Virus record (IMG/VR): IMGVR_UViG_3300022178_003667
Span: 1-38,734 of that record
Strand: one strand, 5' to 3'
Length of the DNA stretch: 38,734 nucleotides
From: a virus
Lineage: Duplodnaviria; Caudoviricetes
Shown here: one piece after another, positions 8,438 through 38,734 of the stretch
Layout: each line of letters begins with the position of its first letter
How positions within the stretch are numbered: position 1 is the stretch's first letter
Notes under the pieces: generated by a model
Told to the model about the DNA's origin: nothing
Database searches by the model: none
The model's input: the letters and a program-made list of their open reading frames with translations, nothing else
Position numbers and translations under genes: made by a program

Positions 8438-8440
8438 CTA

Positions 8441-9428: not shown

Positions 9429-9528
9429 AACGTGATATGAAGGTTGGTAATGTGTAATACTCCAATTAAGTGATTTCAACGTAAAACGAAGGTTGGGGAT
9501 AGGTAATACTCCAATTAAGTGATTTCAA
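9429..9528 (+). repeat. Tandem duplication, 49-bp period
   Basis: Perfect 26-bp GTAATACTCCAATTAAGTGATTTCAA at 9454 and 9503; the preceding parts share AACGT and GAAGGTTGG. Confidence 0.9.
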
Positions 9529-15844: not shown

Positions 15845-15896
15845 TGTTAACAGTCGATAAAACCCATAAAAAACGGTTTTTATCTTAGTGTTAGTA
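15845..15896. repeat. attC-like site A (compact, 52 bp)
   Basis: TGTTAAC-AGTC-GATAAAACC...GGTTTTTATC-TTAGT-GTTAGTA, one extra base in the right arm. Confidence 0.65.
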
Positions 15897-15906
15897 GCAA
15901 TAAAAA

Positions 15907-16116
15907 TTACTTCCATAGTTCATTATTTAGATGCTCTAACCTATAAATGTAGTCGTTCTCGTTTTGTCTTAATTTACCAAGTTTATTAATCATACTATCA
16001 AGGTATTTTTCTGTTTTGCTAATTTCGTCTTGTAGTTGTACTTGGTCAAGCCTGTTATCTTCCAAGCCTTTAGTTTTTAGTTTTATTTGTTTCTCTATTT
16101 GCTTTTTTAAGTCCAT
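15907..16116 (-). CDS. Cassette cargo, coiled-coil hypothetical protein
   Basis: Fills the A-B cassette. Confidence 0.7.
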   Translation of the reverse strand: MDLKKQIEKQIKLKTKGLEDNRLDQVQLQDEISKTEKYLDSMINKLGKLRQNENDYIYRLEHLNNELWK

Positions 16117-16135
16117 TTAACGTAATTTTAAAAGC

Positions 16136-16261
16136 AACTAACAACGTGTATAAAAAATAGCTGTTAAGTGCTTTGGTTAATGTTATTTTATTTTACTCTT
16201 TTACTAATTCAATTTTTAAGTGTGTTAAAACGCTACATTTCATACACAAGTACCGTTATGC
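16136..16261. repeat. attC-like site B
   Basis: AACTAAC-AAC-GTGTATAAAAAATAGC...GCTACATTTCATACAC-AAGTACC-GTTATGC. Confidence 0.8.
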
Positions 16262-16265
16262 ACAA

Positions 16266-16529
16266 TTATTGGCTTTCCATAAATTCTTTTATTTCGTCTA
16301 TTAACCAACCTTTAGATTTAAACCAATGTTGTTTATACATATGCTTAGTAAACGCCAATAACAGTTCACGTTGTTGCATAACATCGCATATAAGTAATTT
16401 ATTTAACTTACTTTCAGCATCCATAAACTCTTGTTCGCAATCATCTAAGCAAGGTAATAAATCACCGTCTATTTGGTTATTTTCTACTAAATCCCAACTT
16501 TTATCTATTAATTCTCTAATTGTTTTCAT
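16266..16529 (-). CDS. Hypothetical protein starting in the loop of site C and reading through its arm (LLICDV|MQQ)
   Basis: ORF track plus site coordinates. Confidence 0.7.
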   Translation of the reverse strand: MKTIRELIDKSWDLVENNQIDGDLLPCLDDCEQEFMDAESKLNKLLICDVMQQRELLLAFTKHMYKQHWFKSKGWLIDEIKEFMESQ

Positions 16530-16583
16530 TTCTTGTTTTTTTTAATCGTTAAATAAACTACTCATATACGTAATACGTTGGCA
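16376..16583. repeat. attC-like site C (long loop)
   Basis: GCATAAC-ATC-GCATATAAGTA...TACTCATATAC-GTAATAC-GTTGGCA. Confidence 0.75.
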
Positions 16584-16628
16584 ACAATAAAATAAAAAAA
16601 AGGGCGCTCACTGTTGCAGTTGTACGTG

Positions 16629-17378
16629 TTAAAAAAGGCTTTGTTGGTTATTTTTGTAATTTGTCACTAATATTTCAGTTCTTTTGTTTTTAAGGTTTTG
16701 TCTTTCACCTATATAAACGATATTCAATCCTCTTTTTTGTGCTTGTTCAATAATAAATGGGTGGTCAAACTCACTAACTGCAAATTTATGTTTAGTGCTT
16801 TCAAGGCAATTAAAAAGACTTTCACTTTGTTCTTCAGTAAAACTACTAGAGTAATTATCAGCAGTTCCTAAATATGGTGGGTCACAGTAAATAAAACAAT
16901 TACCTCTAAACTCAATACCTTTCAAAAACTTTTCAAAGTCCATATTTGCAAACTGAACATCTTTTATAAATTCAAAAGTTTTATCTAAATATTTATAGAC
17001 ATTTAACTTATCATTTCTTGCTCCTAACCTCATTGTACTTCCTCTACCATTTAAAACAAAATTAGATAATGCTAAAAACCTTAACGCTTTTTTTACAGGA
17101 GTATCTTCTTCATTTTTTAACCAATATTTTATTAAGTCAGAATGTAAAGGCATTATTTCAAATTGTCTTTCTAATTCGTCTTTTTGGTTACTTACAACTT
17201 GAAACAAATTAAACACATCAGAGTCTAAATCATTAACAATATTATAATTAACTTTTGGTTTATTAAAGAACATACCTCCTGCACCAAAAAACGGCTCAAC
17301 ATACATATTATGTGCAGGAAAATAACTTTGTATATGTTCAGCTAACTTCTTTTTATTTCCTAATCTTCTTAAAATCAT
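16629..17378 (-). CDS. Dam-like (D12 class) N6-adenine DNA methyltransferase, cassette cargo
   Basis: GNKKKL, EPFFGAGG, VNDLD, YCDPPY. Confidence 0.9.
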   Translation of the reverse strand: MILRRLGNKKKLAEHIQSYFPAHNMYVEPFFGAGGMFFNKPKVNYNIVNDLDSDVFNLFQVVSNQKDELERQFEIMPLHSDLIKYWLKNEEDTPVKKALRFLALSNFVLNGRGSTMRLGARNDKLNVYKYLDKTFEFIKDVQFANMDFEKFLKGIEFRGNCFIYCDPPYLGTADNYSSSFTEEQSESLFNCLESTKHKFAVSEFDHPFIIEQAQKRGLNIVYIGERQNLKNKRTEILVTNYKNNQQSLF

Positions 17379-17430
17379 TACGTGTTATTTGGTTTTTATC
17401 AAAACCACGCCCTTTTTTTTATTTTACAGT

Positions 17431-17563
17431 AGCCAACACTGTATAAAGTTAATAGCTACTTTTAGCGTGTTTAAGATGTTATTTAATTAATTCAATACTC
17501 TTTGTTTATTTATTAAAGTTAGTGTTTTAAATACGCTACTAACCTTATACGATTCCGTTAGAG
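17431..17563. repeat. attC-like site D
   Basis: AGCCAAC-ACT-GTATAAAGTTAATAGC...GCTACTAACCTTATAC-GATTCC-GTTAGAG. Confidence 0.8.
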
Positions 17564-18361: not shown

Positions 18362-18429
18362 TGTATTTAGAGTACGTTAAAGAAAGAAATGAGTTAGAAA
18401 ATAAAATGGCAAAACAAGCACTAAGATAA
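18163..18429 (+). CDS. -1 frameshift extension of the tail chaperone (GT-like)
   Basis: T TTT TTT at 18163-18169; -1 frame open to TAA 18427-18429 (…FGKKWGSYQAIFELAGGD…LMYLEY…), TAATG-coupled to the next gene. Confidence 0.7.
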   Translation, partial: FFLSFSEKIRGLYDGLYSERVTGERGESLKRGFGKKWGSYQAIFELAGGDVGKIDEVTKLPVHQCLMYLEYVKERNELENKMAKQALR

Positions 18430-18887: not shown

Positions 18888-18888
18888 A

Positions 18889-19404
18889 ATGGATGAAAAC
18901 CTAAACATAGGGTTAGAGACTGTAGGTAAACTTATAACAGACAAGTTAAAGGTTGTTGCTAAGGAGGATGGGTTTTATTCATCAGGTAAACTAGATAATG
19001 CTTTTAGGTATGAAGCAGCGGCAAATAACCTAGCTATTTTTAGTGCTAAATATGCAAGAGCCTTATCTGACGGAGTTACTAAAGACAAGTCTTACTCTAA
19101 AGTAGGTGAGGATTTTAAAAATTCTATACTTAAATGGGCAAAAATTAAAGGAATGAGACCTAACACTAGAAATAGCAAAGGTCAATTCAGTAAAATAAAA
19201 GATTATCATTGGAACTCAATGGCTATAGCGTTAGCTATAGGTATAAGAAGAAATGGTATTTCTAAAAGATTTGGATATAAAGGTAGTGGATTCTTTGATA
19301 CTATGCAAGACCAATTAAAGGAACAAATAAGAACAATCCTAAGTGATAGTTATAAAATGGATTTAAAAACACAAATAAGAAAAGATGGCATTAATACTAA
19401 CTAG
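18889..19404 (+). CDS. Putative neck/tail completion protein
   Basis: Basic; SGKL...ILKWAKIKG...GIRRNGI pattern. Confidence 0.5.
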   Translation: MDENLNIGLETVGKLITDKLKVVAKEDGFYSSGKLDNAFRYEAAANNLAIFSAKYARALSDGVTKDKSYSKVGEDFKNSILKWAKIKGMRPNTRNSKGQFSKIKDYHWNSMAIALAIGIRRNGISKRFGYKGSGFFDTMQDQLKEQIRTILSDSYKMDLKTQIRKDGINTN

Positions 19405-20584
19405 GAGTCCATATTATATAAGTAGAGCTAATTTAGATGATGGAGCTGTATTGACATTAGATATAGGTAATATTGATGTTTTTGACTTTAATATATTTAA
19501 AACATATACTTTAAATTTCAGGTCTAAACTATTTGTAGACATCTCTCCATTAATAAGGGATTGGTTTGAAGCCACGTATACATATAACACATCTCAATAT
19601 GATGTAGATAAAGGACAGAAAAATATAGTATATGTAAGAACAACTTTAGCTGGTAATATAAGTGGTGTTTCTCAGACTTCAATAGAAGGAGAGTATTTTG
19701 CTACTGATGGTTACCTGTATGGTACTGATGACTACAACGAAGATAAAAGTGATTTTCTTAGGAAAAATGCTTACTATACAGGAAGTTCAGACACGATATA
19801 TAAGTTAGACGATTCTAATATTAGATTAACATTCTTAAAAACAGATGATGATTTAATACCTGTATTCCCAATACCTACAAATCCTGTTTACATAAAGTAT
19901 TACAATAAAGGAGTTGTGGTACAAGAAAACCAATTCTTTCCAGATGATGACGATTCTGAAACTTACTACGAAACTGTATCTAACTTAGATTACGACTCTT
20001 ATAAAGCTAGAGTTTCTAGCGATAGCGGTACTTTTGAAATTTCAAAGTGCTTAAACTCATTCTTCAGGGAGTTTAGTTTAGATGAGGTAGATGAGATATT
20101 ACTATCATCACAGCCTTACGGTTTTACAGACAATATTGTGAAAAAAATAAAAGTAAATACAATATCGGAATGCAAATACACTCCTTACAGAATAACCTTT
20201 AAAAACAGATTTGGTGCTGATGAGGATTTATGGTTTTTCAAGAAGTCATCTAAATCACTAAAGGTTTCAAAAGAAGATTTTAGGTCTAATGAGTTTAAGG
20301 CATATAATGCAGGAGAGACAACTAGACAAATGCAACAATACAATAAAAATGGAAGAGAGTTATTGACGTTAAATTCTGGATTTGTTGTAGAAGAATTAAA
20401 TAAATCATTTAAACAATTAATGTTATCAGAGGAAGTTACTTTATACGACTTTAAGAATGACATTACAAGTGCTGTTAATATAACAAACGGAGAGCTAGAG
20501 TACAAAACGGTAACAAACGATAAATTGATAAATTACACGATAGATGTGGAATTTGCTAATGATGTAATAAATAACATTGTTTAA
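19385..20584 (+). CDS. Putative distal tail/baseplate protein
   Basis: RSPY...ECKYTPY.ITF.N.FG...LNSGFV; tail module. Confidence 0.55.
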   Translation: MALILTRSPYYISRANLDDGAVLTLDIGNIDVFDFNIFKTYTLNFRSKLFVDISPLIRDWFEATYTYNTSQYDVDKGQKNIVYVRTTLAGNISGVSQTSIEGEYFATDGYLYGTDDYNEDKSDFLRKNAYYTGSSDTIYKLDDSNIRLTFLKTDDDLIPVFPIPTNPVYIKYYNKGVVVQENQFFPDDDDSETYYETVSNLDYDSYKARVSSDSGTFEISKCLNSFFREFSLDEVDEILLSSQPYGFTDNIVKKIKVNTISECKYTPYRITFKNRFGADEDLWFFKKSSKSLKVSKEDFRSNEFKAYNAGETTRQMQQYNKNGRELLTLNSGFVVEELNKSFKQLMLSEEVTLYDFKNDITSAVNITNGELEYKTVTNDKLINYTIDVEFANDVINNIV

Positions 20585-23355: not shown

Positions 23356-23504
23356 TAAGAGATATGTTAGATTTATTAGCTAGTAATGATTGGCTAGTAC
23401 AAGATGAAGATATGCAAATAGCTAAAGGGTTATACGAATACCCTTTAACATTTAAGGAATTAAAAATGAGTATTAAACGTAGAAAAGCACTAAATGGCAG
23501 ATAA
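23352..23504 (+). CDS. Small hypothetical protein (50 aa)
   Basis: ATGA-coupled; MIRDMLDLL...IAKGLYEYP. Confidence 0.5.
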   Translation: MIRDMLDLLASNDWLVQDEDMQIAKGLYEYPLTFKELKMSIKRRKALNGR

Positions 23505-25824
23505 TACAGAGTTCATCACGTATCAAATTCAAGTAGATACTAAGAGTGGTAAGATAAACGTAGATAATATAACTAAAGGGTTTACCGAGGCTAACTCAGC
23601 ATTTAGTAAATTACATAAGGATATTAAGAAGAATATGCCAGACATGGCTGACGCTATGGACACAACCTCTAAAGCTACAGGTGGTGCTACTGCTTCTGTA
23701 ATGGAGATGAGTAGGGTTGTTTCTGATATGCCTTATGGTATTCGAGGTGTTGCAAACAACCTTACGCAGTTGGTTTCTCAGTTTGGATTTACCGCTAAAG
23801 CTGCTGGTGGTGCTAAAGCTGCGTTAAAAGAGATGGGTAAGCTAATGCTAGGCCCGTTAGGTATTGTGTTTGCAATAACTGCTGTAATATCTGCATTAGA
23901 CTATTTTTACGGAGCGCAAAAGAAAGCAGAAGATAGTGCTAAAGATTTAACGCAAGAATTACAAAAACAAGTAGATGTTTTAGAAGCACACAATACAGCG
24001 TTAGATAGAGATAATTTATCATTAGAGGATAGGGTTGGTATTATAAAATCACTTTCAGTAACAAGTAATGAGTTTAGAAAAATACTAAAACAAACAAACG
24101 GAAGTTACGAAGAGCAAGTAAAAGCTTTAAGAGACTTGCTTTATGAGAAAAAACAAGAGCTAGTAATAAGAGAGAAGGTTGCTAGGTTTGAAGAAATAGA
24201 GAAAGAATTATCTGAGAGTAGATTTAAAACACTTAAACAAGCTAATGACGAGATTAAGAGGCAGAACGATTTAAGGAAACAGGCATTAAAAGAAGGAGGC
24301 TCTACGTCAGAGGGTGAAAAAATGATAAACGCTATTTACGACAGGAGGGTGTCTCACGCTTTAAAGATTGTAAGGTTAATGGAGGAGGAAAAAAATCTTC
24401 TTACAGATATAAATGGATTAGCTGAAGATGTTAGGATTATTGAGAAGGGGAGTGAGGCTCAATTAAAAGCTGAATTGAATGGATTAAAAGAAAAGCAGTC
24501 CGCTATAGAAGGTCTTACAGACACATGGTATGCTTATGAGTTGGAGATTATAGAGGTTGAGAAAGCGTTAAAAAAAATACAAGATTTTGGTAAAAAAAAT
24601 AAAGGGAGTAAACCCGCTAAAATAAACCCATTTGCAACACCAGAAGAATTAGAGCTTTCAGTAAAAAGTCAATTAGATGCCGTAGATGCGTACAGAAAAA
24701 AGATAGAGATAGCTGAACTAGATGCTGAAAATAAGCGGTTGCTAAAAACCGTAACATCAGAAGAGGAGAAAAAGGCTATTAAGATAAAGTACGAGAAAGA
24801 TAAGTTAGATATTACTTTAAAATACGAGGAGGAGGCTTTAAATAAGAGCAAAAACAAAGAGATAGCTAAATCAACTAATGATTACAATAACTATGTTAAG
24901 TCTTTAGATAAAAAACAAGATATCTTCATAAAGAAAACAAATGAAAACAGTAAGTATGACAAAAAAACTAGAGCTAAACTAATTGCAGACTCGATAAAAG
25001 AAACTGAGGAAGCTAAAACTAAAGCGTTTTTAAATCTAGGAAATAACGTAAAACAAATAGAAGAACAGTACAAACCTCTATTTGAGTTGTTTAGAACATT
25101 AGCAAAAGCTAGGAGAGATGGTATTGGAGGTGATAGTGAAATAGAAACAGAGCAGGAAAGATTACGGAGGTTATATGAAGTTAAGAAGTTTTGGGCTGAC
25201 CAATTCATGAAGGTAGCTAATGGTGCTACTGATTTTATCAATGGAGAATTTGATAGACAACTAGCAACAGAGCGAAACAAAACAAACGCATTAAACAACG
25301 AATTAAATCAAAGACTTCTTAATGAAAATCTTTCCAAGGAAGAAAGAAAAAGAATACAGTTACAGATAGGTGCTAATGACGAGGCTTTAAGAAAAAAGCA
25401 AGAAGCTATTGAGAAAAAGAGGTTTAAATTAAATAAAGCTGCAAATATTGCTAACGCAACAATAAATACATATTTAGCAGCTACTCAAGTTATGTCATCT
25501 TTAACTGTTCCAGCTTGGATGAAAGTACCTATGGCTATAGCTACGGTCTCTAGCGGACTTTTGCAAGTTGCTGCAATAGCTAGGCAAAAGTTTCAATCAT
25601 CAGCAGGAAGTGGTGGTCAAATTGGCGGTGGATTCGGTGGTGGCTCAGGTAGTGGTAATGGAAGAGAATTTAACTTTAATCTAGCAGGTAGTTCTGATAG
25701 AAACCAAATAGCAGAAGCTATAGGTAGTAGGTTTGACCAACCTCTAAGAGCTTATGTAGTGTCAAGAGATGTTACAACACAACAACAGATAGATGCTGAC
25801 ATTAGAAGTAACGCTAGTTTTTAA
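23494..25824 (+). CDS. Tape measure protein
   Basis: 776 aa; SDMPYGIRGVANNLTQL, long coiled coil, hydrophobic segments, C-terminal RAYVVSRDVT. Confidence 0.8.
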   Translation: MADNTEFITYQIQVDTKSGKINVDNITKGFTEANSAFSKLHKDIKKNMPDMADAMDTTSKATGGATASVMEMSRVVSDMPYGIRGVANNLTQLVSQFGFTAKAAGGAKAALKEMGKLMLGPLGIVFAITAVISALDYFYGAQKKAEDSAKDLTQELQKQVDVLEAHNTALDRDNLSLEDRVGIIKSLSVTSNEFRKILKQTNGSYEEQVKALRDLLYEKKQELVIREKVARFEEIEKELSESRFKTLKQANDEIKRQNDLRKQALKEGGSTSEGEKMINAIYDRRVSHALKIVRLMEEEKNLLTDINGLAEDVRIIEKGSEAQLKAELNGLKEKQSAIEGLTDTWYAYELEIIEVEKALKKIQDFGKKNKGSKPAKINPFATPEELELSVKSQLDAVDAYRKKIEIAELDAENKRLLKTVTSEEEKKAIKIKYEKDKLDITLKYEEEALNKSKNKEIAKSTNDYNNYVKSLDKKQDIFIKKTNENSKYDKKTRAKLIADSIKETEEAKTKAFLNLGNNVKQIEEQYKPLFELFRTLAKARRDGIGGDSEIETEQERLRRLYEVKKFWADQFMKVANGATDFINGEFDRQLATERNKTNALNNELNQRLLNENLSKEERKRIQLQIGANDEALRKKQEAIEKKRFKLNKAANIANATINTYLAATQVMSSLTVPAWMKVPMAIATVSSGLLQVAAIARQKFQSSAGSGGQIGGGFGGGSGSGNGREFNFNLAGSSDRNQIAEAIGSRFDQPLRAYVVSRDVTTQQQIDADIRSNASF

Positions 25825-25825
25825 A

Positions 25826-25856
25826 ACAAAAAAGAGCTACAATAAAGCAGCTCTTA
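25826..25856 (-). terminator. Intrinsic terminator with U-tail on the minus strand
   Basis: AAGAGCTGC-TTTATT-GTAGCTCTT-TTTTG. Confidence 0.6.
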
Positions 25857-25902
25857 AATATTTTGAAAAGGATTTTTTACCGGTAAGTTGAAATCCACAA
25901 AT

Positions 25903-25934
25903 CAAATATACAACAAAATAGAATACCAAACAAA
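25903..25934 (-). promoter_or_regulatory. Host-type promoter
   Basis: TTTG-N20-TATATTTG on the minus strand. Confidence 0.5.
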
Positions 25935-25938
25935 TAAA

Positions 25939-25964
25939 ACGTAATAAATTTTTAGAGTTACCTT
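25939..25964 (+). promoter_or_regulatory. Phage late-promoter motif (variant)
   Basis: ACGT-N14-GTTACCTT before the protease gene. Confidence 0.55.
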
Positions 25965-25977
25965 AATAAATATAATT

Positions 25978-26565
25978 ATGAACGAATTAGACACTATAGA
26001 ACTATTTATAGACGAACACTTAGAAGAGGAGGGTATTAATGCAATATCCTTAGTAGAGTTTCCTGCTATTGAAGAAAACTTTGTCGCTTTAAGTAAACAC
26101 GAAGTAGATTTTAAAACTATTGACGAGGATAAAAGAATTATCGTAGGACTAGCTTTAGTGCCTGATAAGAAGATTAAAAGGCGTAAAGGTGATTATATGT
26201 ATAACATTACATTCTCTAAAGATACTGTAAGAAAAGCATCTGAATTATACCTTAAAAGACTTAAAAACAATAATGCAACGCTAGAACACGCAGAACTAAC
26301 TACAGGGGTGTCTGTAATTGAAAGTTGGATAGTGGAAGACCCTAGTAAAGACAAGAGTGCTTTATATGGGTTAAATGCCGTACAAGGTGCTTGGGCGGTT
26401 ACTATGAAGATAGATAATGACGAAGTTTGGGCAGATGTCAAAAACGGAAAGTATTTAGGTTTATCTATAGAGGGTATTTTTAGCGACAAGGTTGAGGATA
26501 TGTCTAGCGATGAAGAAATGACACAATCTGAATTTATAAACGAACTTAAAAAAATACTTCAATAA
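25978..26565 (+). CDS. XkdF-like prohead serine protease
   Basis: AISLVEFPAIE, G.ALVPDK, TLEH, ESWIVED, G.SIEG. Confidence 0.8.
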   Translation: MNELDTIELFIDEHLEEEGINAISLVEFPAIEENFVALSKHEVDFKTIDEDKRIIVGLALVPDKKIKRRKGDYMYNITFSKDTVRKASELYLKRLKNNNATLEHAELTTGVSVIESWIVEDPSKDKSALYGLNAVQGAWAVTMKIDNDEVWADVKNGKYLGLSIEGIFSDKVEDMSSDEEMTQSEFINELKKILQ

Positions 26566-27179
26566 TGGTAAACACAAGCTACAATGTAAGACCTGATAAG
26601 CACACTACATCAGAAATAAGCGCACTAAATCCAGAAAAAGGGGTTATTGTTTATGACACTAATTTAGACGTGTTAAAAGAGTATAACGGAACTGCTTGGG
26701 CTGAATTAAGGTCGGCAGACACCTCTGGATGGGCAAGTTATAATGATACCCAATACACAAGTGGCGCACCTTTTACACTTTCTGCTGATACAGATACAGC
26801 TTTACCTAATAACAAAGGAACAATTTTAGAAACACAAAAACCATCAGATGTAACAACTTTTTATGATGGTACAGTAATTACAGGTAGAAATGGGGATAAT
26901 TTAGACCTACAAATATATTTTAAAGCAACACCATCATCACAAAACCAATGGATAGAAATATGGGTAGATATTGGTGGTTCTGTTGGTGAATTATATCGTC
27001 AAACTTTTTCTTTTCCTAGAGGTACAGGAGTTGAAAGAGGTATTATGTATTCTTTGGCATCTGCATACACTTTAGGAACTTGGGAAGCAAATGGGGGTAC
27101 TGTTTATGTAAGAAGTAATGCAAGTGCTACAATCCATAGTATCGTGTATAATTTTGACCGCTCTCACAAGGCTAGATAA
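26565..27179 (+). CDS. Putative virion accessory/decoration protein
   Basis: Head module; G.IVYDT..Y.G.W fibre-like motif. Confidence 0.5.
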   Translation: MVNTSYNVRPDKHTTSEISALNPEKGVIVYDTNLDVLKEYNGTAWAELRSADTSGWASYNDTQYTSGAPFTLSADTDTALPNNKGTILETQKPSDVTTFYDGTVITGRNGDNLDLQIYFKATPSSQNQWIEIWVDIGGSVGELYRQTFSFPRGTGVERGIMYSLASAYTLGTWEANGGTVYVRSNASATIHSIVYNFDRSHKAR

Positions 27180-27181
27180 GT

Positions 27182-27313
27182 ATGGCAGAAAGAGCTAAAT
27201 ATTGCAAATGTCTAAACACGTACACTATTAAAAAGTGTGAGAAAAAGAAGTGTAAGCAACCTAAATATTGGTCGCAAGGTGTTGGATTTATAGGAGGTAA
27301 AGCTACTGAATAA
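27182..27313 (+). CDS. Small Cys-rich protein (43 aa)
   Basis: MAERAKYCKCLNTY...C...C...QGVG, read manually. Confidence 0.5.
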   Translation: MAERAKYCKCLNTYTIKKCEKKKCKQPKYWSQGVGFIGGKATE

Positions 27314-27326
27314 CCTATAAAATACG

Positions 27327-27353
27327 ACAATTAAATTAAATGAAAGTTATATT
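27327..27353 (+). promoter_or_regulatory. Phage late-promoter motif (N15 variant)
   Basis: ACAA-N15-GTTATATT before scaffold and capsid genes. Confidence 0.6.
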
Positions 27354-27370
27354 AATATAAAACAGTAAGT

Positions 27371-27817
27371 ATGAATTATAAAGAAATCCTAAGTGAAGTT
27401 AAGAATCTTGTAGGTTTAGCTAAAGAAGAGTCGGTTAAAGAAACAAAGGTTGTTGATGAAGTGGTTTTATCTACAGAAGAAGTTACAGACACTAAAGATG
27501 TTGAGTTAGCAGAAGATGTGGTTGAAGAGCCTAAAAAAGAGGTAGAGCAAGTACAAGTTAGTTTTGCAACTAGTGAGGAATTGTCACAAGTTAAACAAGA
27601 GTTATTATCTATGATTAAAGCATTAATCGAAGATAAGTCTGATTCTAAAGAGGCTGATGTACCTGCTAAATTATCTAAAGATGACGTTGAGTTATCAAAC
27701 ATTGAAGAGATTGTTCACTCTCCAGAAGCAAAAACAGAACAAAAAGTACAAAAATCATATATAAATAAACAAGCAATGACAACTGAGCAAAGGGTTGCTT
27801 ATGCGTTAAACAATTAA
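27371..27817 (+). CDS. Capsid scaffolding protein
   Basis: Acidic; HSPE motif; directly before the capsid gene. Confidence 0.65.
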   Translation: MNYKEILSEVKNLVGLAKEESVKETKVVDEVVLSTEEVTDTKDVELAEDVVEEPKKEVEQVQVSFATSEELSQVKQELLSMIKALIEDKSDSKEADVPAKLSKDDVELSNIEEIVHSPEAKTEQKVQKSYINKQAMTTEQRVAYALNN

Positions 27818-27827
27818 AAATTAAGAA

Positions 27828-28778
27828 ATGGCTACAACTACAAGTATTACTACAACTTATGCAGGTGAATTTGCTGGGAAATATATTTCCGCAGCTCTTT
27901 TATCTGGTAACACTATTGCTAACGGTGGATTAACTGTTAGACCTAATGTTAAATTTAAAGAGGTTGTTAAGAGAATGGAATTAGATGGTATCGTGAAAGA
28001 TGGTACTTGTGATTTCGCAGACACATCTACATTAACTTTAACTGAAAGAATCCTTCAACCAGAGGAGTTTCAAGTAAATTTAGAGTTATGTAAGAAAGAT
28101 TTTAGAAGTGATTGGGAGGCAATCCAAATGGGTTACTCCGCTTTTGATGACTTACCTAAGACATTCCAAGAATACCTAATTATGCACGTAGCTGCGAAGG
28201 TAGCACAAAAAACAGAAAACACTATTTGGAAAGGAGTTAATGCAACTGCTGGAGAATTTGATGGATTTGAGGTTTTATTAGCTGCTGATGCTGCTTTACC
28301 TGCTGCACAAGAAGTTGCAGGAATACCTGTAACTGCTGCAAACGTAGTAGCTGAATTAGGTAAGATTGTGGATGCTGTTCCATCATCTTTATACGGTAGA
28401 GATGATTTCTATATCTACGTATCTCAAAACATCTTTAGAGCATATAAGCGTTCTTTAGGAGGTTTCCAATCAGGAGGTCAAGGAGCTAATGGTTTTATGG
28501 CACAAGGAAATAACCAAGATATTAACGTAATTTGGTTTGACGGAGTTAAGTTGTTTATGGCTAACGGATTGTCTGATGATACTGCGGTTGCTACAACTAA
28601 AGACAACTTATGGTTTGGTACAGGACTAATGTCTGACCATAACGAAGTTAAGATTTTAGATATGGATGACTTAGATGGTTCTCAGAACGTAAGAGTAATT
28701 ATGAGATTTACTGCTGGTATTCAGTACGGAGTAGTAGAAGATATTGTAACATACGGTATTACAAACGGAGCTAACTAA
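27828..28778 (+). CDS. Major capsid protein
   Basis: MATTTSITTTYAGEFAGKYISAALLS...LQPEEFQVNLELCK...DGSQNVRVIMRF. Confidence 0.88.
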   Translation: MATTTSITTTYAGEFAGKYISAALLSGNTIANGGLTVRPNVKFKEVVKRMELDGIVKDGTCDFADTSTLTLTERILQPEEFQVNLELCKKDFRSDWEAIQMGYSAFDDLPKTFQEYLIMHVAAKVAQKTENTIWKGVNATAGEFDGFEVLLAADAALPAAQEVAGIPVTAANVVAELGKIVDAVPSSLYGRDDFYIYVSQNIFRAYKRSLGGFQSGGQGANGFMAQGNNQDINVIWFDGVKLFMANGLSDDTAVATTKDNLWFGTGLMSDHNEVKILDMDDLDGSQNVRVIMRFTAGIQYGVVEDIVTYGITNGAN

Positions 28779-28803
28779 TAATTAGCCTTAATATAAAAAT
28801 AAC

Positions 28804-28833
28804 AAGGGTAGGTTTAACTACCTACCCTTTTTT
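28804..28833 (+). terminator. Intrinsic terminator after the capsid gene
   Basis: AAGGGTAGGT/ACCTACCCTT plus T-tract. Confidence 0.75.
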
Positions 28834-28857
28834 AATAACAAATAAAACATAAAGATT

Positions 28858-29412
28858 TTGAGTTGTGATATTTCAAGAGGTAGATTAGAGCCTTGTAAAG
28901 ACTCTGTAGGAGGGTTAAACGCTATCTATTTCGTAAACAAAGGAGATATTGATTTAACAGACGTTACATACGATGTTACTGATACAGATGTGATTGATTC
29001 TGTTGGTACTGGTGTAGCTGCTTATAAATTCGATATTAGAAACGCATCAACATTTACAGAGAACATTCAGTCTAGTAGAGAGAATGGAACTACTGTATTT
29101 GAGCAGGTGCTAGAATTAACTTTAAGCAAGTTAACCAAAGAAGACCATAAAACCGTTAAATTACTTTCTTACGGAAGTCCTACTATTTTAGTAGAAGATA
29201 ATAACGGAAACGTATTTATTGCAGGACTAGAACATGGTTGCGATGTAACTGGTGGTACTATAGTAAGTGGTGGTGCAATGGGTGATTTAAGTGGATATAC
29301 TCTATCTTTCTCAGGAATGGAAAGAGTACCTGCAAACTTTATATTAGCTAATGCTAGTGGAGTTGCTGCTGCTTTAACTGCTGTTGGATTTACAGTAACG
29401 GCAGGAGTTTAG
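28858..29412 (+). CDS. Major tail tube protein (TTG start)
   Basis: CDISRGRLEPCKDSVGGL...SRENGTT.FEQ...GDLSGYTL. Confidence 0.75.
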   Translation: MSCDISRGRLEPCKDSVGGLNAIYFVNKGDIDLTDVTYDVTDTDVIDSVGTGVAAYKFDIRNASTFTENIQSSRENGTTVFEQVLELTLSKLTKEDHKTVKLLSYGSPTILVEDNNGNVFIAGLEHGCDVTGGTIVSGGAMGDLSGYTLSFSGMERVPANFILANASGVAAALTAVGFTVTAGV

Positions 29413-33145: not shown

Positions 33146-33294
33146 TTATAAAGGTTTTTTGCTTTGGTTAAAGTCATATTAATAGTAGTTAGAGTTAATA
33201 TGGTGCTAGATGCCTATCCATTACGTTCAGCGACCATCTATAATTTACTAAGGTAATTGCTGAAACATTATCCCTTTCAATCGCACCATACTAA

Positions 33295-33427
33295 CAATAA
33301 CAATGTATATAAAAAATAGGGGGTGGCGTAGTCAAACCTAATTGTTTCTTTACTAAATTACCACTGGCGAAACGTCTATTATGTACCTATTTTAAACCCC
33401 TAAATTTCATATACTTTAAAGTTATAT
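33295..33427. repeat. attC-like site E
   Basis: CAATAAC-AAT-GTATATAAAAAATAGGGG...CCCCTAAATTTCATATAC-TTTAAA-GTTATAT. Confidence 0.8.
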
Positions 33428-33435
33428 GCAAGTGC

Positions 33436-34200
33436 TTAATGTTCGTGCAATATCAATTCTATGTCCTTTAAATCTTTTTCTTTTATTTTTTTTTCCATCC
33501 TCTCACTCGCAACCTTAAAATATTCATCATTTAATTCCATACCTAAAAAACGCCTATTTGTGTTCAAACAAGCTATTCCAGTAGAGCAACTTCCCATTGT
33601 ATTGTCCACAACTAAATCGCCTTCATCTGTAAATAAGTTTATTAAAAACTCGTTAAGTTCTACATTTTTTTGAGTTGGGTGCAATTGAGGGCTAAACACA
33701 TTCGTATATTTTAAAACTGTTCTTGGATAGCCTGTTTTAGTCATTGTGTATTCATTACTTCTGCTTCTTCTTGTTCCATAAACACCACTTTCGTCAGGTC
33801 TTTTAACTTTCTTATTGCAATCTTTTAAAGTTGGGTTGTATTTAGGTAATTTTTTGTAAAATACTAATATATTTTCGTGGCTTCTTAAAGGCATTTTCTT
33901 TGCGTTAAAGAAGCCAACAGGTTTTGTTTTTTCCCAAATAATTTCGTATCTAAAATATTTTCTATAAGCATTAATCAAATCACTTGCAAAAGGTTGTTGT
34001 GCATAAAGTAATATTATACCATTATCAGTAATTATTCTATCATAATGCTTAAATAAAATATCTAAATCAAGGGTTTTATCCCATTCGTTTTTATCAGTAG
34101 TTCCATAAGGTAAATCACATAAAATCATATTTACGCTTTTATTAGGTACTTCTTCCATAATTTTAAGGCAATCACCTTTTAATAAACTTAATGTATTCAT
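33436..34200 (-). CDS. N4/N6 DNA methyltransferase (beta class), cassette cargo
   Basis: GDCL, CDLPY, IIWEK, HPTQK, DNTMGSCSTG. Confidence 0.9.
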   Translation of the reverse strand: MNTLSLLKGDCLKIMEEVPNKSVNMILCDLPYGTTDKNEWDKTLDLDILFKHYDRIITDNGIILLYAQQPFASDLINAYRKYFRYEIIWEKTKPVGFFNAKKMPLRSHENILVFYKKLPKYNPTLKDCNKKVKRPDESGVYGTRRSRSNEYTMTKTGYPRTVLKYTNVFSPQLHPTQKNVELNEFLINLFTDEGDLVVDNTMGSCSTGIACLNTNRRFLGMELNDEYFKVASERMEKKIKEKDLKDIELILHEH

Positions 34201-34289
34201 TTTGCTATCGCAATTTGCCCTCGCTCAAAAATAAAAGAAAAAGGGTCGGTTAATAATTCAAACTTTTGTGCTTTAAAGTCGCACCAGAC

Positions 34290-34421
34290 ATATAACAACG
34301 TATATAAAAAAGGCGGTGTAATTTATTGAGTATCGGAGCTATCTGCACGTCTGCAAGGTCATTGCCACAATAAACGTCACTTACTTTTAATCCGCCCATT
34401 TCATATACAAGTACGTTGGTA
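34290..34421. repeat. attC-like site F
   Basis: ATATAAC-AAC-GTATATAAAAAAGGCGG...CCGCCCATTTCATATAC-AAGTAC-GTTGGTA. Confidence 0.8.
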
Positions 34422-34443
34422 ACAATTGCTAAAAAAAGCCACC

Positions 34444-34944
34444 TCACTCGGTCGGCTCACTCTTAATGAAACAAATCCAATGAGTTTGCATAGCTTTTCC
34501 GCTTTTATGTCCGTAAAGCGGTTTTTCTTCTGTTAAAGCTAAGATTTCTTTTATTGGTATTCTACATTCATTCCATTTAAAAATTAGTGTTCCATTTGGT
34601 TTTAATACTCTAAAACATTCTATAAATCCTTTTCTTAACATTTCTTTCCAATCACCGGTTAAATGTCCATATTGTTTACATATTGCACCAGTCATAGTTT
34701 TTTGTGGTATATGTGGTGGGTCAAAAACAATATGGTAAAATGAATTATCTTCTTGTTTTATATTTGTAAAATCCCCTATTTCATCAGGTTCAACTATTAT
34801 ATTTCTATCATAGCCATCTTTTCTTTTTATTATGTGTTTCTCTTGTCTTTTATCTAAAAACAATGCTCTTTCATCTTGTTTATTAAACCACATACTTTTT
34901 GGCCCACAGCAAACATCTAATACTTTTTTCCTACTCATAATCAT
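34444..34944 (-). CDS. SAM-dependent (DNA amino-)methyltransferase, cassette cargo
   Basis: VLDVCCG..SMWF, VFDPPH, ECFRVLKPNG.LIFKW; start placed inside the cassette (34944 or 34938). Confidence 0.82.
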   Translation of the reverse strand: MIMSRKKVLDVCCGPKSMWFNKQDERALFLDKRQEKHIIKRKDGYDRNIIVEPDEIGDFTNIKQEDNSFYHIVFDPPHIPQKTMTGAICKQYGHLTGDWKEMLRKGFIECFRVLKPNGTLIFKWNECRIPIKEILALTEEKPLYGHKSGKAMQTHWICFIKSEPTE

Positions 34945-34986
34945 TTTATTTTTTTGCAAAAATAAGTGGCTTTTTTTATCAACAGT

Positions 34987-35117
34987 AACCAACAACGTAT
35001 ATAATTTATTGCTGCTAATCACTGTTTTACCAAGTTATTTTTATTATTTATACTATTCTATTATTTAATTATTTCAGTTCTTTAAATCGCAACAAACCAT
35101 ATACAAATACGTTAGCA
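34987..35117. repeat. attC-like site G
   Basis: AACCAAC-AAC-GTATATAATTTATTGC...GCAACAAACCATATAC-AAATAC-GTTAGCA. Confidence 0.8.
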
Positions 35118-35121
35118 TTAA

Positions 35122-35382
35122 TTAAGATTCTAGCCAATCTGCATAAGATTTGAAGTTATCAGCACTTTCAACGTGCTTAATTATAGATTCCAAATCATTA
35201 GGTATATATAACCAACTTGCAGATAGTTCCCAACTATAATTTTGCCATATATTACCGCACTCATCTAGTGTGCAAAGTATATCTCTGTGCAATACCAATG
35301 CTTTTTGTATTCTAATCAAATCTTCTTTAGGTTCTTGCTTATGGTATTCGTCTGTTACTATTTGGTCTCGTAAGTGTATCAT
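35122..35382 (-). CDS. Cassette cargo, hypothetical protein
   Basis: Fills the G-H cassette. Confidence 0.7.
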   Translation of the reverse strand: MIHLRDQIVTDEYHKQEPKEDLIRIQKALVLHRDILCTLDECGNIWQNYSWELSASWLYIPNDLESIIKHVESADNFKSYADWLES

Positions 35383-35392
35383 AATTAACTAA

Positions 35393-35489
35393 TGCTAACA
35401 ATGGCTATAAATAAAAGCCTTTGCTAAGGTTATTTCTTTGAATCAATCATTTGTTATACGGCTTCAATTCATAGCCGTAGCCGTTGGTA
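35393..35489. repeat. attC-like site H
   Basis: TGCTAAC-AAT-GGCTATAAATAAAAGCC...GGCTTCAATTCATAGCC-GTAGCC-GTTGGTA. Confidence 0.8.
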
Positions 35490-35523
35490 ACAATTGCTAA
35501 AAAAGCCACCTCACTCTTGTAGC

Positions 35524-36429
35524 TTACTCATATTCGTGAAAATTGAATATATTAGTTTGATAATTTATTTCTTGATGCGTTTCACTCACTTCGTCTAAAT
35601 CTTTTACACCACAAGCTAAACCATTGCAATCTGTTAATGGTTGTGGTGGTCTGCCTTTCATCATTGAAATATCTTTTATGTTTGGGTAGTCTGGGTGCGG
35701 TTTTAGAAATACTAAACCCCCTCCTTTGCTTTGGTCTTTTAACATTGTTACGGGTTCGCCTTTTAAGTCTGTTAGTTCGTGTTCAATCTTAGACATTGCG
35801 TTAAATTTAGAGAGCCATATTCCACCCATGTCCCTAAATTTTTGCCAGTACCCTATTCCTCCTTGCACGCAACCTCCAGTTGTAGGGGTTGAACCTAAAC
35901 AATTGTTATTTAAAAATCCTAGTACATAAGCCATTGGTAATTTTAAACCTTCATCTTGTATTAACTGAACACAATCTTTTTTTGTATATCCGTACATCAA
36001 TAATGGAAATATAGGTTTTGCAGTTTTACGATAATTGTTAACCATAGATTTAACTCGTCTAATTTCATCAACATCAAATCCAAATGCTTGTGCTTGGTAA
36101 CTATTTTCTTTTTCCCATTCTTTTCTTAATTGTCTTTTTAATTCAGAAGAACAAACTGCACCACCAGCAACATTTAAAGATTTGTATTTATACCAAACAT
36201 CTTGTATTTTTTCATACTTTTTACCTTTACCTATTCTTGTAATAGTTTCAATTTCCTTACCATACCATTTTTCACAGTCTTTTTTAAATCTGTAAGTGTC
36301 TTCATCTTCATTAAATGTATCAATGAAAATTAATCTTACGTTTTCAACTCCATAAATGTCTATGCAAAGTTTACAAGTTACTGCACTTGTAACACCACCA
36401 GACCACCAACCTATTATTTTATTTTTCAT
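35524..36429 (-). CDS. PAPS-reductase-like (PP-loop adenine nucleotide alpha-hydrolase) protein, cassette cargo
   Basis: WWSGGVTSA PP-loop, EDEDTYRF, C...LK, GF.NNNC....GCV.GG.GYW. Confidence 0.75.
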   Translation of the reverse strand: MKNKIIGWWSGGVTSAVTCKLCIDIYGVENVRLIFIDTFNEDEDTYRFKKDCEKWYGKEIETITRIGKGKKYEKIQDVWYKYKSLNVAGGAVCSSELKRQLRKEWEKENSYQAQAFGFDVDEIRRVKSMVNNYRKTAKPIFPLLMYGYTKKDCVQLIQDEGLKLPMAYVLGFLNNNCLGSTPTTGGCVQGGIGYWQKFRDMGGIWLSKFNAMSKIEHELTDLKGEPVTMLKDQSKGGGLVFLKPHPDYPNIKDISMMKGRPPQPLTDCNGLACGVKDLDEVSETHQEINYQTNIFNFHEYE

Positions 36430-36653
36430 AATTCTATAATTTCTTTTGTTTCTTCTTTAAAATAATCCCTTGCCATTTCTAAATTAGAGTAACTTAAATC
36501 ACAAGGTAATAATTCTGTAAAATATCCATTTAACCAAAGTTCATCGCTTTTATATCTTTTCCAATACCCCCCAAATAAATTAAAAAACCATTTGTTTTTA
36601 TAATATTCTGGATAATACCTATTACCTTCTTTTACTATTCTTTTATCACTCAT
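36426..36653 (-). CDS. Cassette cargo, hypothetical protein
   Basis: ATGA-coupled to the PP-loop gene. Confidence 0.65.
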   Translation of the reverse strand: MSDKRIVKEGNRYYPEYYKNKWFFNLFGGYWKRYKSDELWLNGYFTELLPCDLSYSNLEMARDYFKEETKEIIEL

Positions 36654-36701
36654 ATTCTTTATTTTAATTTTTCAAATTAATGTGGCTTTTTTAGCAACTG
36701 T

Positions 36702-36832
36702 AACCAACAATGTGTATAATTTAGTGCTACTAATCGTCTGTTTAACCACTTATTTTTATCATTTACACTATTCTACTATTTATTAATTTTCTTGCTTTAA
36801 ATCGCACCAAACCATACACAAATACGTTGGTA
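36702..36832. repeat. attC-like site I (paralogue of G)
   Basis: AACCAAC-AAT-GTGTATAATTTAGTGC...GCACCAAACCATACAC-AAATAC-GTTGGTA. Confidence 0.8.
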
Positions 36833-36842
36833 GTAATGTGCC

Positions 36843-37136
36843 TTACTTATTAAATAGTTCAGGCTTATAAACAGATTTCTTGCAATAATCCTCTAACTTT
36901 ATGTATTGGTTATCAGGGCAACACGCAAGATATTTCTTATCTATTACTTTAGTGCTTAAACTTCCACAGCCAGTGCATACTTTCGGCAAACTACAACCAA
37001 CATCGGTTATAATTAATTGTTCAGTCACGTAATCATAAGCAACATCATTTATTTCTTGTCGCTTATCTACTGGCACTTCTGCTAAATCAAAGAGTTGTGC
37101 CACTATTCCTATTGCTTGTTTTTCTAAATTTTTCAT
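36843..37136 (-). CDS. Hypothetical protein starting in the loop of site J (QLIITDV|GCS), with Cys-rich C-terminus
   Basis: ORF track plus site coordinates; CTGC...CC. Confidence 0.7.
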   Translation of the reverse strand: MKNLEKQAIGIVAQLFDLAEVPVDKRQEINDVAYDYVTEQLIITDVGCSLPKVCTGCGSLSTKVIDKKYLACCPDNQYIKLEDYCKKSVYKPELFNK

Positions 37137-37193
37137 TCTATTTAATTTTTTGTTTTAATAAATCACAACTAATCATAACCACATCCGTTATAA
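36995..37193. repeat. attC-like site J (long loop)
   Basis: AACCAAC-ATC-GGTTATAATTAATTGT...ACAACTAATCATAACC-ACATCC-GTTATAA. Confidence 0.8.
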
Positions 37194-37364
37194 AACATTT
37201 TTTTTAATAAACTTAATCCATTCTTCCATAGTTAAGTGTTTGTGAAAAATACCATCAGTACTATATTGTATTAATTTAGTGCCATCTAAAAGAGCAGAGT
37301 AACGTATATTATTGCTAAGGTCTATATTTTTCATTTCTGTTCTTTTTAATTTACTTATTTCCAT
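37188..37364 (-). CDS. Cassette cargo, hypothetical protein (58 aa)
   Basis: Manual translation MEISKLKRTEMKNIDL...; TAA stop overlaps the GTT core of site J. Confidence 0.6.
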   Translation of the reverse strand: MEISKLKRTEMKNIDLSNNIRYSALLDGTKLIQYSTDGIFHKHLTMEEWIKFIKKNVL

Positions 37365-37375
37365 AAAAAAACTTT

Positions 37376-37505
37376 TAATAACACTGTATATAAAAAATAA
37401 AGTGTTAGTGATTAATATTAATTTTCAGCTAATCTAAGTACTATTTTTGTAACCACCAAATAAAAGTATACAATTCTTTAAATTTCATATACAAATCAGT
37501 TATCT
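37376..37505. repeat. attC-like site K
   Basis: TAATAAC-ACT-GTATATAAAAAATAAAG...CTTTAAATTTCATATAC-AAATCA-GTTATCT. Confidence 0.75.
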
Positions 37506-37720
37506 ACAAGTTTCTTCTGGTTCGTGTTCCTTTACATATTTATAGAATCTACATAAAGCTTGTTCATACCTTTTTTTGGCTGTGCTATTTGCAAATGCCA
37601 TAGGTGTTAAATCGAAAATTACAGATATCTTGGTATTTGATAGCTGTAATTCTTTTTTTAGAAGTCTTTCTTGGTTTTGCTTATCTTATAAGCATCAAAT
37701 ATTGCTATATTGTATATCAT
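37500..37720 (-). pseudogene. Chimeric pseudogene: 20 codons of an 8441-like gene joined out of frame to a start-less HTH-like cargo remnant
   Basis: 37720-37661 is 55/60 identical to 8441-8500, then TAA; another frame reads LKKELQLSNTKIS...KKRYEQALCRFY...TAA ending on the K core. Confidence 0.6.
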
Positions 37721-37738
37721 TGGTTTATTGTTTAGTTA

Positions 37739-37930
37739 TTAGTACACTCTTATTGTGCATCTATTATTAATTATATTAAACACTTCCTCATGGTACTCTT
37801 CTGGTATACCTTCCTCGTTTATAGCATCTTGTATTTCTTCCATTAACGTATCTATTACTGAAGATTCCCATACACTACAATTAGCAGCATAATCCATTAC
37901 TTTCTGTTTTCTTTTTTCTTCTGGTGTCAT
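37739..37930 (-). CDS. Hypothetical protein
   Basis: ORF track. Confidence 0.6.
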   Translation of the reverse strand: MTPEEKRKQKVMDYAANCSVWESSVIDTLMEEIQDAINEEGIPEEYHEEVFNIINNRCTIRVY

Positions 37931-38058
37931 ATCTTTATATTTTTACTGGTTAATTGCTCCTTTAAGTACCTTCTGCATTCAGCATCACTTTTGCTATGTC
38001 TAATTTTATTATAAGTAGAATTATCTATATTGCTTATAAAATTTATTATATTTTCCAT
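37927..38058 (-). CDS. Loop-encoded ORF of truncated site L (43 aa)
   Basis: MENIINF...YLKEQLT-SKNIKI; ATGA-coupled to the next ORF. Confidence 0.5.
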   Translation of the reverse strand: MENIINFISNIDNSTYNKIRHSKSDAECRRYLKEQLTSKNIKI

Positions 38059-38118
38059 TTGTATTTATTTAATTTGTTTTTATTTATCCGCAACTAACTT
38101 TAACCATATAAGTTGTGT
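37949..38118. repeat. attC-like site L (left arm truncated)
   Basis: Intact right half GCAACTAACTTTAACC-ATATAA-GTTGTGT; only GTTAATTGC of the left arm remains. Confidence 0.6.
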
Positions 38119-38186
38119 GTAATGCGGTTGGATAACCGTTCTGTAAAAGCTACATCATTACGTAACCGCACTACAAGCCTTTCGGC

Positions 38187-38314
38187 ACACAACTATGGTT
38201 AAATGTAATACCTAACCAATAGTAATGTCAAAACTAATTATATCATTCATAATCGCTTATTTATAAAATTATAGTAGTTTTTCTCGGCACTACACTTAAC
38301 CGTTTAAGTTGTAA
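38187..38314. repeat. attC-like site M
   Basis: ACACAAC-TAT-GGTTAAATGTAATACC...GGCACTACACTTAACC-GTTTAA-GTTGTAA. Confidence 0.8.
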
Positions 38315-38319
38315 ACAAT

Positions 38320-38472
38320 TTACTTACCTCGTGGTACAAAGAAAGTCCAAGTTTTTGCTTGTGGGTGTTCTGCTCTCCAAATTTTGTATTTAATAAACCC
38401 AATTCCGTAAATAAGACCACAGAATCCTAATATAATTAAAGCAATAGTAAAATTTTCTTTTAGTTTTTTCAT
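38320..38472 (-). CDS. Cassette cargo, small single-pass membrane protein (50 aa)
   Basis: MKKLKENFTIALIILGFCGLIYGIGFIKYK...; read manually. Confidence 0.6.
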   Translation of the reverse strand: MKKLKENFTIALIILGFCGLIYGIGFIKYKIWRAEHPQAKTWTFFVPRGK

Positions 38473-38630
38473 CGTAAACAATTTACAACATCGGTTAAAG
38501 TTAATTGCTTTTTTAGGTATTCTATATTATTAAAATTTAACCTAATGTAATCTCCTGTTTGTAATTTAATGTTTAAATAACCATCTTTTATCCAATGGTC
38601 TTTAACGTTTGGTAATTTATTTATGTCCAT
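38469..38630 (-). CDS. Loop-encoded ORF of site N (53 aa), ATGA-coupled to the cargo
   Basis: MDINKLPNVK...YLKKQLTLTDVVNCLR; read manually. Confidence 0.55.
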   Translation of the reverse strand: MDINKLPNVKDHWIKDGYLNIKLQTGDYIRLNFNNIEYLKKQLTLTDVVNCLR

Positions 38631-38685
38631 ATCTATTTACTTTTAGTTTAATTCACGCAACTAACCTTAACCACATACGTTAGTA
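38483..38685. repeat. attC-like site N (long loop)
   Basis: TTACAAC-ATC-GGTTAAAGTTAATTGC...GCAACTAACCTTAACC-ACATAC-GTTAGTA. Confidence 0.8.
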
Positions 38686-38734
38686 GTAATACTTATATGT
38701 ATTCTTTTTATTCAGTTAATTATACATATTTGTA

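Follow-up and report, generated by a model that had tools for sequence, protein, structure and literature searches.

A mobile, integron-like cassette array outside the IntI/attC family in a phage record without a tyrosine recombinase

The virus record IMGVR_UViG_3300022178_003667 (Caudoviricetes), whose full length of 38,734 nucleotides (nt) is the window analysed here, carries on its + strand, between positions 33299 and 38681, nine whole palindromic sites and one right half-site that alternate with short gene-bearing or gene-less units. These units are mobile cassettes, and the system to which they belong is integron-like, real and mobile, but lies outside the IntI/attC family. We consider it highly probable that the array comprises ten cassettes behind an attI-like site, that G|TT is the exact point at which its content differs from phage to phage, and that a small tyrosine recombinase of the Xer-like kind, probably provided in trans, is the likely agent of its shuffling and acts on sites for which folding into single-stranded DNA hairpins is predicted.

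All sites of the array follow the form AAC-N3-arm(17)-loop-arm(17)-N6-GTT, with loops of 40-146 nt. An earlier note on this DNA, made from its letters alone, had described ten sites (E to N) of one geometry, one of them truncated, and this description holds, site L being the right half. When at least 13 Watson-Crick pairs out of 17 are demanded, the whole window contains 10 sites, namely the nine whole sites of the array and site D (at 17435) of a second array in the same phage, versus a chance mean of 0.07 and a maximum of 1 in 30 first-order Markov resamples of the window. In a grid of spacer lengths, the sole enriched register is the one in which the right spacer is 3 nt longer than the left. 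A first site scan that demanded 11 of 12 pairs returned zero matches and was too strict given the fixed mismatches. The units hold 0-2 open reading frames (ORFs), every one on the - strand, in keeping with the earlier description of sites alternating with gene-less or one- to two-gene units.

In the cassette arrays of integrons, the box closing a unit should complement the box that opens the same unit. The units of the window have the anatomy TT-body-AAC-N3-arm-loop-arm-N6-G, and in nine of them the 4 nt following the first GTT complement the 4 nt preceding the last AAC at 30 of 36 positions, versus 15.0 expected (p 1.7e-5, permutation over all 9! pairings). The same end complementarity is found elsewhere, at 3.5 versus 1.8 of 4 positions in 126 chromosomal units and at 2.7 versus 1.3 of 4 in 89 viral units.

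Movement of the units can be read from related phages and from population variants. The phage isolates Danklef_1 and Danklef_5 carry a methyltransferase unit of 781 base pairs (bp) that is absent from Danklef_2, _3 and _4; the switch falls within GTTA and leaves the left site intact, and the 19-nt identical left end of the two flanking sites is not used. This position of the crossover identifies the + strand as the top strand. Freya isolates, which have an intact recombinase of 271 amino acids (aa) and one attI in common, show length differences of 307, 472, about 841 and 3198 bp, every one of which spans GTT to GTT and begins at the same GTT (the comparison covers 7 of the 10 Freya records); Freya_8 equals Freya_10 up to the start of the Freya_8 record just ahead of a GTT, the junction lying beyond that record. 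In the comparisons of Freya 10 with 9 and of 10 with 5, GTT alone is common to both ends. At position 33190 of the window itself, contigs from two samples, the runs of which may include the record's own source, continue from the flank into three other first cassettes; two of these variants start directly after GTT or GTTA, and in the third the divergence comes within the 10 nt that follow. It is at the attI end that new units are located, and whole units are gained or lost at the right-hand GTT. What moves is a body together with one site, always at GTT and with a 3-4-nt core as the sole flanking repeat, and not a palindrome on its own as would be the case for a miniature inverted-repeat transposable element (MITE). 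The site-specific shuffling of cassettes that the earlier note had proposed is consequently supported by differences at G|TT in the Danklef, Freya and 33190 comparisons, and the window adds direct evidence for the use of an attI-like site even where the phage record encodes no recombinase.

The arms had been described as variable with their pairing kept, and this stands at 0.91-0.92 paired versus 0.45-0.58 with shuffled partners. Assessed by partner shuffling on sites found by motif alone, the nine free arm positions pair at 0.916 in 186 chromosomal sites and at 0.913 in 102 viral sites, as compared with 0.576 and 0.448 for shuffled partners; partner swaps inside a locus yield 0.616 and 0.415, respectively. 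Position 7 of the arms is A.C on the top strand, and hence G.T on the bottom strand, in 175 of 181 chromosomal and 129 of 155 viral sites, being partly fixed by the search pattern and score; position 12, which neither of them constrains, is likewise A.C in 177/181 and 135/155 sites. The arms pair in register over 16 positions without a bulge, so that there is no extrahelical base. The bottom strand is the better folder in 166 of 181 chromosomal and 142 of 155 phage sites, and it is favoured in 10 of the 13 window sites. Cassette genes, on the other hand, lie on the bottom strand in 74 of 76 viral units (this phage itself contributes 4), where they read towards attI, and on the top strand in 111 of 114 chromosomal units. 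Since the same bottom strand folds better in both groups, antisense to the chromosomal genes and sense in the phages, the conserved structure should be one of DNA rather than of RNA. One may speculate that the inverted polarity silences host cassettes in a phage, or that it places the recombining strand on the lagging-strand template, an arrangement that leads to more excision in classical integrons (PMC5371416).

A strict version of the site pattern matches 114 viral stretches and an estimated 2800 stretches in the species-genome collection; the 80 matches listed from the latter all belong to Bacteroidota, mostly Flavobacteriaceae. Four chromosomal arrays begin behind a same-strand tyrosine recombinase of 375-379 aa, and this chromosomal enzyme (~375 aa) is present in 107 of 151 genomes of one flavobacterial family. 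In 40 chromosomal regions, same-strand sites lie downstream of 31 of 42 recombinase ORFs, a count that includes two unrelated 236-aa ORFs and several regions that finish at a contig end; in most of these regions a GTT was seen by eye shortly past the recombinase stop. For the phage-type enzyme (264-290 aa, ~270 aa), the 268-aa recombinase of viral locus L083 served as the query and gave 70 distinct phage relatives. Opposite-strand sites occur upstream in 39 of the 55 phage recombinases with 2 kb of upstream DNA, same-strand sites in 0, and sites downstream in 1 of 62. Beside these enzymes lies a phage-type attI that ends in ATATATAATA-GTT or close variants. The attI-like site of the window reads ATTAATAGTA-GTT and lies 43 nt away from where an unrelated 85-aa ORF starts, at a position that in related phages is taken by the recombinase; this ORF has no homologue in the loci examined. 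The start of the region had previously been set at 33188, and this position is indeed an insertion boundary, one formed not by an attC site but by an attI-like point.

Array-associated enzymes score 156-216 bits against the integron integrase model TIGR02249, below its cut-off of 265 and in two stretches, and both enzyme forms lack the two inserts of the Vibrio IntI row. Their best curated model is the XerA-like NF040815, and their best solved relatives are archaeal XerA proteins (PDB 4a8e, 5hxy). In a tree of 38 rows with a midpoint root and a single IntI row on a long branch, the cassette enzymes cluster apart from host Xer-like proteins (support 96/82). With respect to the attC/IntI logic that the earlier note had invoked, the cassettes bounded by G|TT have stood, whereas the likely enzyme, in its chromosomal and its phage form, is Xer-like without the IntI insertion, and the genes run antisense to the strand that is classically the top one. 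Sites B, F, G, I and K reach 85-97% identity with sites from other phages; against the best of 349 chromosomal sites, all 11 window sites tested reach only 52-72%. The methyltransferase of cassette 3 has a match in 1 of 401 family genomes (44%, no adjoining site), and among 15 window ORFs none has a chromosomal homologue beside a site in the loci examined. The attI and the sites of this array are of the phage type.

Relatives of these enzymes turned up in further settings. In Danklef_1 (L154:5696-6200) only the C-terminal half of the recombinase is left, immediately after a right half-site, and the Freya recombinase is whole. The 'integrase' of Leef_1 (L384) has four opposite-strand sites upstream, and that of Ingeline_1 (L466) has an attI-like GTT and no site at the threshold used. 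A 35% relative of the phage-type recombinase resides outside the Bacteroidota, in a Leptospira phage (KF114878.1:29478-30098). A truncated recombinase upstream of tet(X3) on the Acinetobacter indicus plasmid NZ_CP041297.1 (L383:4052-6230; TnpF in another record) shares 56% identity with the chromosomal cassette enzyme and clusters with it. By eye, a hairpin plus GTT resembling a flavobacterial attI lies between this recombinase and tet(X3), and an apparent left half-site follows the gene, where the scan calls no whole site; tet(X3) looks like the first cassette of such a platform.

The data lend themselves to the following model. During phage replication, the bottom strand of two sites would form a stem of 16 bp containing two fixed G.T wobbles, together with an internal loop of 3x6 nt, and the recombinase would cut at the AAC/GTT box and release a circle. 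This circle, or one originating from another phage, would be reinserted at attI, and the cassette genes would be expressed through the phage's own - strand transcription. The benefit might lie in a rapid turnover of DNA-modification genes, probably directed against host restriction, and of small orphan genes; the two arrays together hold three methyltransferases and one PAPS-reductase-family gene. As to the enzyme, we lean towards the phage-type form of 264-290 aa, contributed by a co-infecting phage or prophage, or formerly encoded here and lost. The host form of ~375 aa is a possible source, though a less probable one, and an enzyme encoded beyond the record ends is unlikely. We infer that the phage-type enzyme is likelier than either of these; its rank above the host's follows from the phage-like sites and from the finding that, in the loci and family genomes examined, no window gene turned up in a chromosomal cassette.

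Several observations weigh against this model. As the earlier note had stated, the window contains no tyrosine recombinase (PF00589 in 0/1 record; none among 60 ORFs scanned against PHROGs), and tblastn found no recombinase remnant; the link to an enzyme therefore depends on other genomes. Among the phage recombinases with sufficient upstream DNA, 16 of 55 have no upstream site at the threshold used. The indel in Danklef is precise despite the broken recombinase of that phage, so that more than one source of the enzyme is conceivable. In folding, window sites E and F show a slight preference for the top strand, and H has none. Within the 50-nt flank, two of the three variants at 33190 depart from the record by 2-3 letters and a gap as well, and they consequently represent sister strains, not daughters of this genome. 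In the assembled contigs of four runs, neither a circle nor a clean attC x attC excision joint of the array was present; the joints found in these runs are short-sided and fit the sites of other phages, and nothing was inferred from them. Site F, finally, is 97% identical to a Danklef_5 site that follows another methyltransferase, so that a site core is not always tied to one body.

Integrons resemble the system described here in combining a tyrosine recombinase with a primary site and an array, in the AAC...GTT core with its G|TT crossover, in sites with kept structure, variable sequence and a variable terminal loop, in the better folding of one strand, and in complementary cassette ends (PMC5371416). 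The window accordingly has an attI at the head of the array, AAC...GTT cores with G|TT, complementary ends, and sites with an unpaired central spacer and a variable terminal structure. In contrast to integrons, the recombinases are devoid of both IntI inserts; the sites have two G.T wobbles, no extrahelical bases and a 3x6 loop, as compared with 5x6 in attC aadA7 (judged from oligonucleotides); the chromosomal enzyme is co-oriented with its array and has an N-terminal extension of ~100 aa; and the phage genes are on the bottom strand, reading towards attI. The cassette enzymes share with XerA, XerC and XerD (NF040815, PDB 4a8e, 5hxy) a catalytic domain without the IntI inserts; unlike these proteins, they adjoin cassette arrays and group apart from the Xer-like proteins of their hosts. 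The IntI insertion is not fully conserved in a subgroup of integron-like enzymes (PMC8138268), and the present enzymes may therefore already be filed there. With IntegronFinder 2.0, a single Bacteroidetes genome, Chlorobi and Ignavibacteriae aside, was reported to have a complete integron (PMC9024848).

A close precedent is provided by attC clusters without an integrase (CALINs) in virulent phages, including the Polaribacter phage P12002L, which carry DNA methyltransferases (Qi et al. 2023, PMC9892861). P12002L_attC1 has the geometry of the window sites and the same 6-nt spacer as site H. Two P12002L sites were called in that study with classical attC models, versus 10 by the present scan, and the P12002L attC2 tested there is, on our reading, a left half only; neither a cognate enzyme nor an attI or inverted polarity is described in the consulted part of that paper (PMC9892861). 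The Flavo-1 RNA motif and Flavobacteriales MITEs are likewise palindromes repeated between the genes of Flavobacteriaceae, in sense or antisense orientation relative to transcripts (PMC9723704); unlike Flavo-1, the array has no Rfam match, and the MITE lists of PMC11602168 may contain the present sites under another name. The earlier note had regarded the system as undescribed. No description of it was found in the literature searched, a search to which bioRxiv supplements and MITE lists were external and on whose outcome they may bear; phage attC clusters, including one P12002L site of this class, are however in print (PMC9892861), and the system is consequently not wholly undescribed.

Other explanations of the array have to be measured against these data. 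The same cassettes could be recombined as double-stranded DNA in a Xer/dif-like manner, with the palindromes serving as protein-binding arms and not as a folded strand. The recombinases lack the IntI insertion, called essential for integron function (PMC8138268), their nearest models are the XerA-like NF040815 and archaeal XerA structures, and several arm positions are fixed in sequence, all of which would suit this explanation; we nevertheless judge it improbable, as arm positions 3, 9, 10 and 14-16 vary freely but stay paired across loops of 40-146 nt, and as both fixed non-pairs, including the one at the unconstrained position 12, are A.C on the top strand and thereby G.T on the bottom. A remnant of a classical IntI integron caught by a phage, in other words an ordinary CALIN, is very unlikely: it is true that attC has the same AAC...GTT boxes and G|TT crossover, and that the P12002L sites have been filed as CALIN (PMC9892861), but the missing extrahelical base, the 3x6 loop, the inverted genes and array-side enzymes that match TIGR02249 below its cut-off and in two pieces speak against it, as does P12002L_attC1, a site of this class and the only one among six that IntI1 failed to recombine (PMC9892861).

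Equally small is the probability that we assign to the repeats being hotspots of homologous recombination or slippage, aided by the Erf-like annealing protein encoded at 14077-14652. Neighbouring sites do have short identical stretches in common; the Danklef crossover, however, bypasses the 19-nt identity in favour of GTTA, the two Freya comparisons with GTT alone in common offer no longer identity, and complementarity of unit ends is not predicted by such a process, which the Danklef and Freya breakpoints largely refute. The least credit goes to terminators, regulatory RNAs or MITEs that happen to lie between morons. Such elements would be in line with a G.U-compatible strand that is the mRNA strand in phages, with MITE surveys that list many Flavobacteriales elements common to viruses (PMC11602168), and with the 3-4-nt direct repeat flanking the units. 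Yet the better-folding strand is antisense in chromosomes, the mobile piece is a gene plus one site, always at GTT, and the one terminator-like site in the region coincides with no site. An Rfam scan (E up to 5) returned 7 weak matches in the window, none of them in 33188-38734; a promoter and terminator scan, the models of which do not extend to Bacteroidota promoters, gave fewer matches than shuffled sequences, and no RNA holder was listed.

Features of the attI-like point, the sites and cassettes of the main array, and the second array (positions refer to the window).
Feature	Position	Strand	Remarks
attI-like primary insertion point	33178..33190	+	crossover G|TT at 33188/33189; motif match to phage recombinase upstream regions
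site E	33299-33423	+	whole
site F	34294-34417	+	whole
site G	34991-35113	+	whole
site H	35397-35485	+	whole, short
site I	36706-36828	+	whole
site J	36999-37189	+	whole, long
site K	37380-37501	+	whole
site L	38089-38114	+	right half only
site M	38191-38310	+	whole
site N	38487-38681	+	whole, long
cassette 1	33189..33421	+	gene-less; terminal site E
cassette 2	33422..34415	+	N6/N4 DNA methyltransferase 33436-34200 (-); site F
cassette 3	34416..35111	+	methyltransferase 34444-34941 (-); body with ~27-nt inverted ends; site G
cassette 4	35112..35483	+	86-aa orphan ORF 35122-35382 (-); short site H
cassette 5	35484..36826	+	PAPS-reductase-family ORF 35524-36429 (-), 75-aa ORF 36426-36653 (-); site I
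cassette 6	36827..37187	+	97-aa ORF 36843-37136 (-), start within site J loop, crosses J left arm
cassette 7	37188..37499	+	58-aa ORF 37188-37364 (-), stop codon overlapping GTT box; site K
cassette 8, damaged	37500..38112	+	63-aa ORF 37739-37930 (-); fragment copied from 8436-8499; site L right half
cassette 9	38113..38308	+	gene-less, 82-nt body; site M
cassette 10	38309..38679	+	two 53-aa ORFs, 38320-38481 and 38469-38630 (-), second starting in long site N
second array	15849..17559	+	same kind as main array
site A	15849-15892	+	short, doubtful
site B	16140-16259	+	7-nt right spacer
site C	16378-16579	+	long; 7-nt right spacer
site D	17435-17559	+	whole
D12-class adenine methyltransferase	16629-17378	-	second array; between 30-nt inverted ends

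The cassette ORFs encode two methyltransferases and one member of the PAPS-reductase family, the remainder being without a Pfam or PHROG match, and past cassette 10 the array extends up to the record end. Cassettes 3 and 5 have ~27-nt inverted ends in common and sites that are 76% alike, with unrelated genes. Each of the three long sites (C, J and N, about 190-200 nt) contains an ORF start; ORFs from these sites read across the left arm and the AAC box into the cassette body, and the site is therefore partly coding. The fragment in the damaged cassette 8 belongs to a 64-nt inverted copy, 92% alike, between 8436-8499 and 37662-37725, through which the start of a 64-aa ORF at 8441 reappears as a dead fragment. 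In the second array, site B is 91% identical to a P12002L site, and the start of the methyltransferase cassette is found also in P12002L, ahead of a different methyltransferase.

The record is classed as linear and begins within a tail gene; because of this, it may be incomplete despite its CheckV value of 100%. PHROGs and family scans identify a portal, a terminase, the Erf-like annealing protein and several methyltransferases. Among isolates, phages of Polaribacter and Flavobacterium match its DNA best, which points to a flavobacterial host. The layout is unusual in that the portal and one tail gene (1-5782) are on the - strand, distant from the + strand head and tail block (17651-29412), with the terminase in between. 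Among small + strand ORFs lie a bidirectional terminator-like hairpin with weak Rfam matches (7091-7175) and a 49-nt tandem duplication (9429-9526). Two of our loci (L001 and L002) are the same phage as the window; 38 relatives of the neighbouring phosphoesterase gene (L003-L040) contain no site, and the array is therefore not a fixed feature of that locus.

Taken further, these findings incline us, with some reserve, to the view that Bacteroidota and their phages possess a second single-strand cassette system of separate evolutionary origin, in which hairpins with G.T wobbles are read by a Xer-like recombinase that lacks the IntI insertion. Its phage branch would have mirror polarity and a cassette pool spanning unrelated phage families, phages without an integrase would rely on a borrowed enzyme to renew their stock of methylases, cassettes from the host would insert in antisense and remain silent, and the host branch may be the former platform of tet(X3). 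The enzymes of Danklef, Freya and Leef have been taken as signs of temperate life in a report whose consulted part contains neither the word cassette nor the word integron (PMC8776804). Cultured pairs of Freya, Danklef and Leef with Polaribacter make the system testable now. If the mechanism holds, the 'integrases' of these phages would be cassette enzymes and not signs of temperate life. It would also follow that a large gene-capture system has been overlooked, as standard integron surveys appear to miss such arrays, that folded-strand recombination without the IntI insertion makes the origin of integron integrases testable, and that phage mosaicism gains a site-specific engine.

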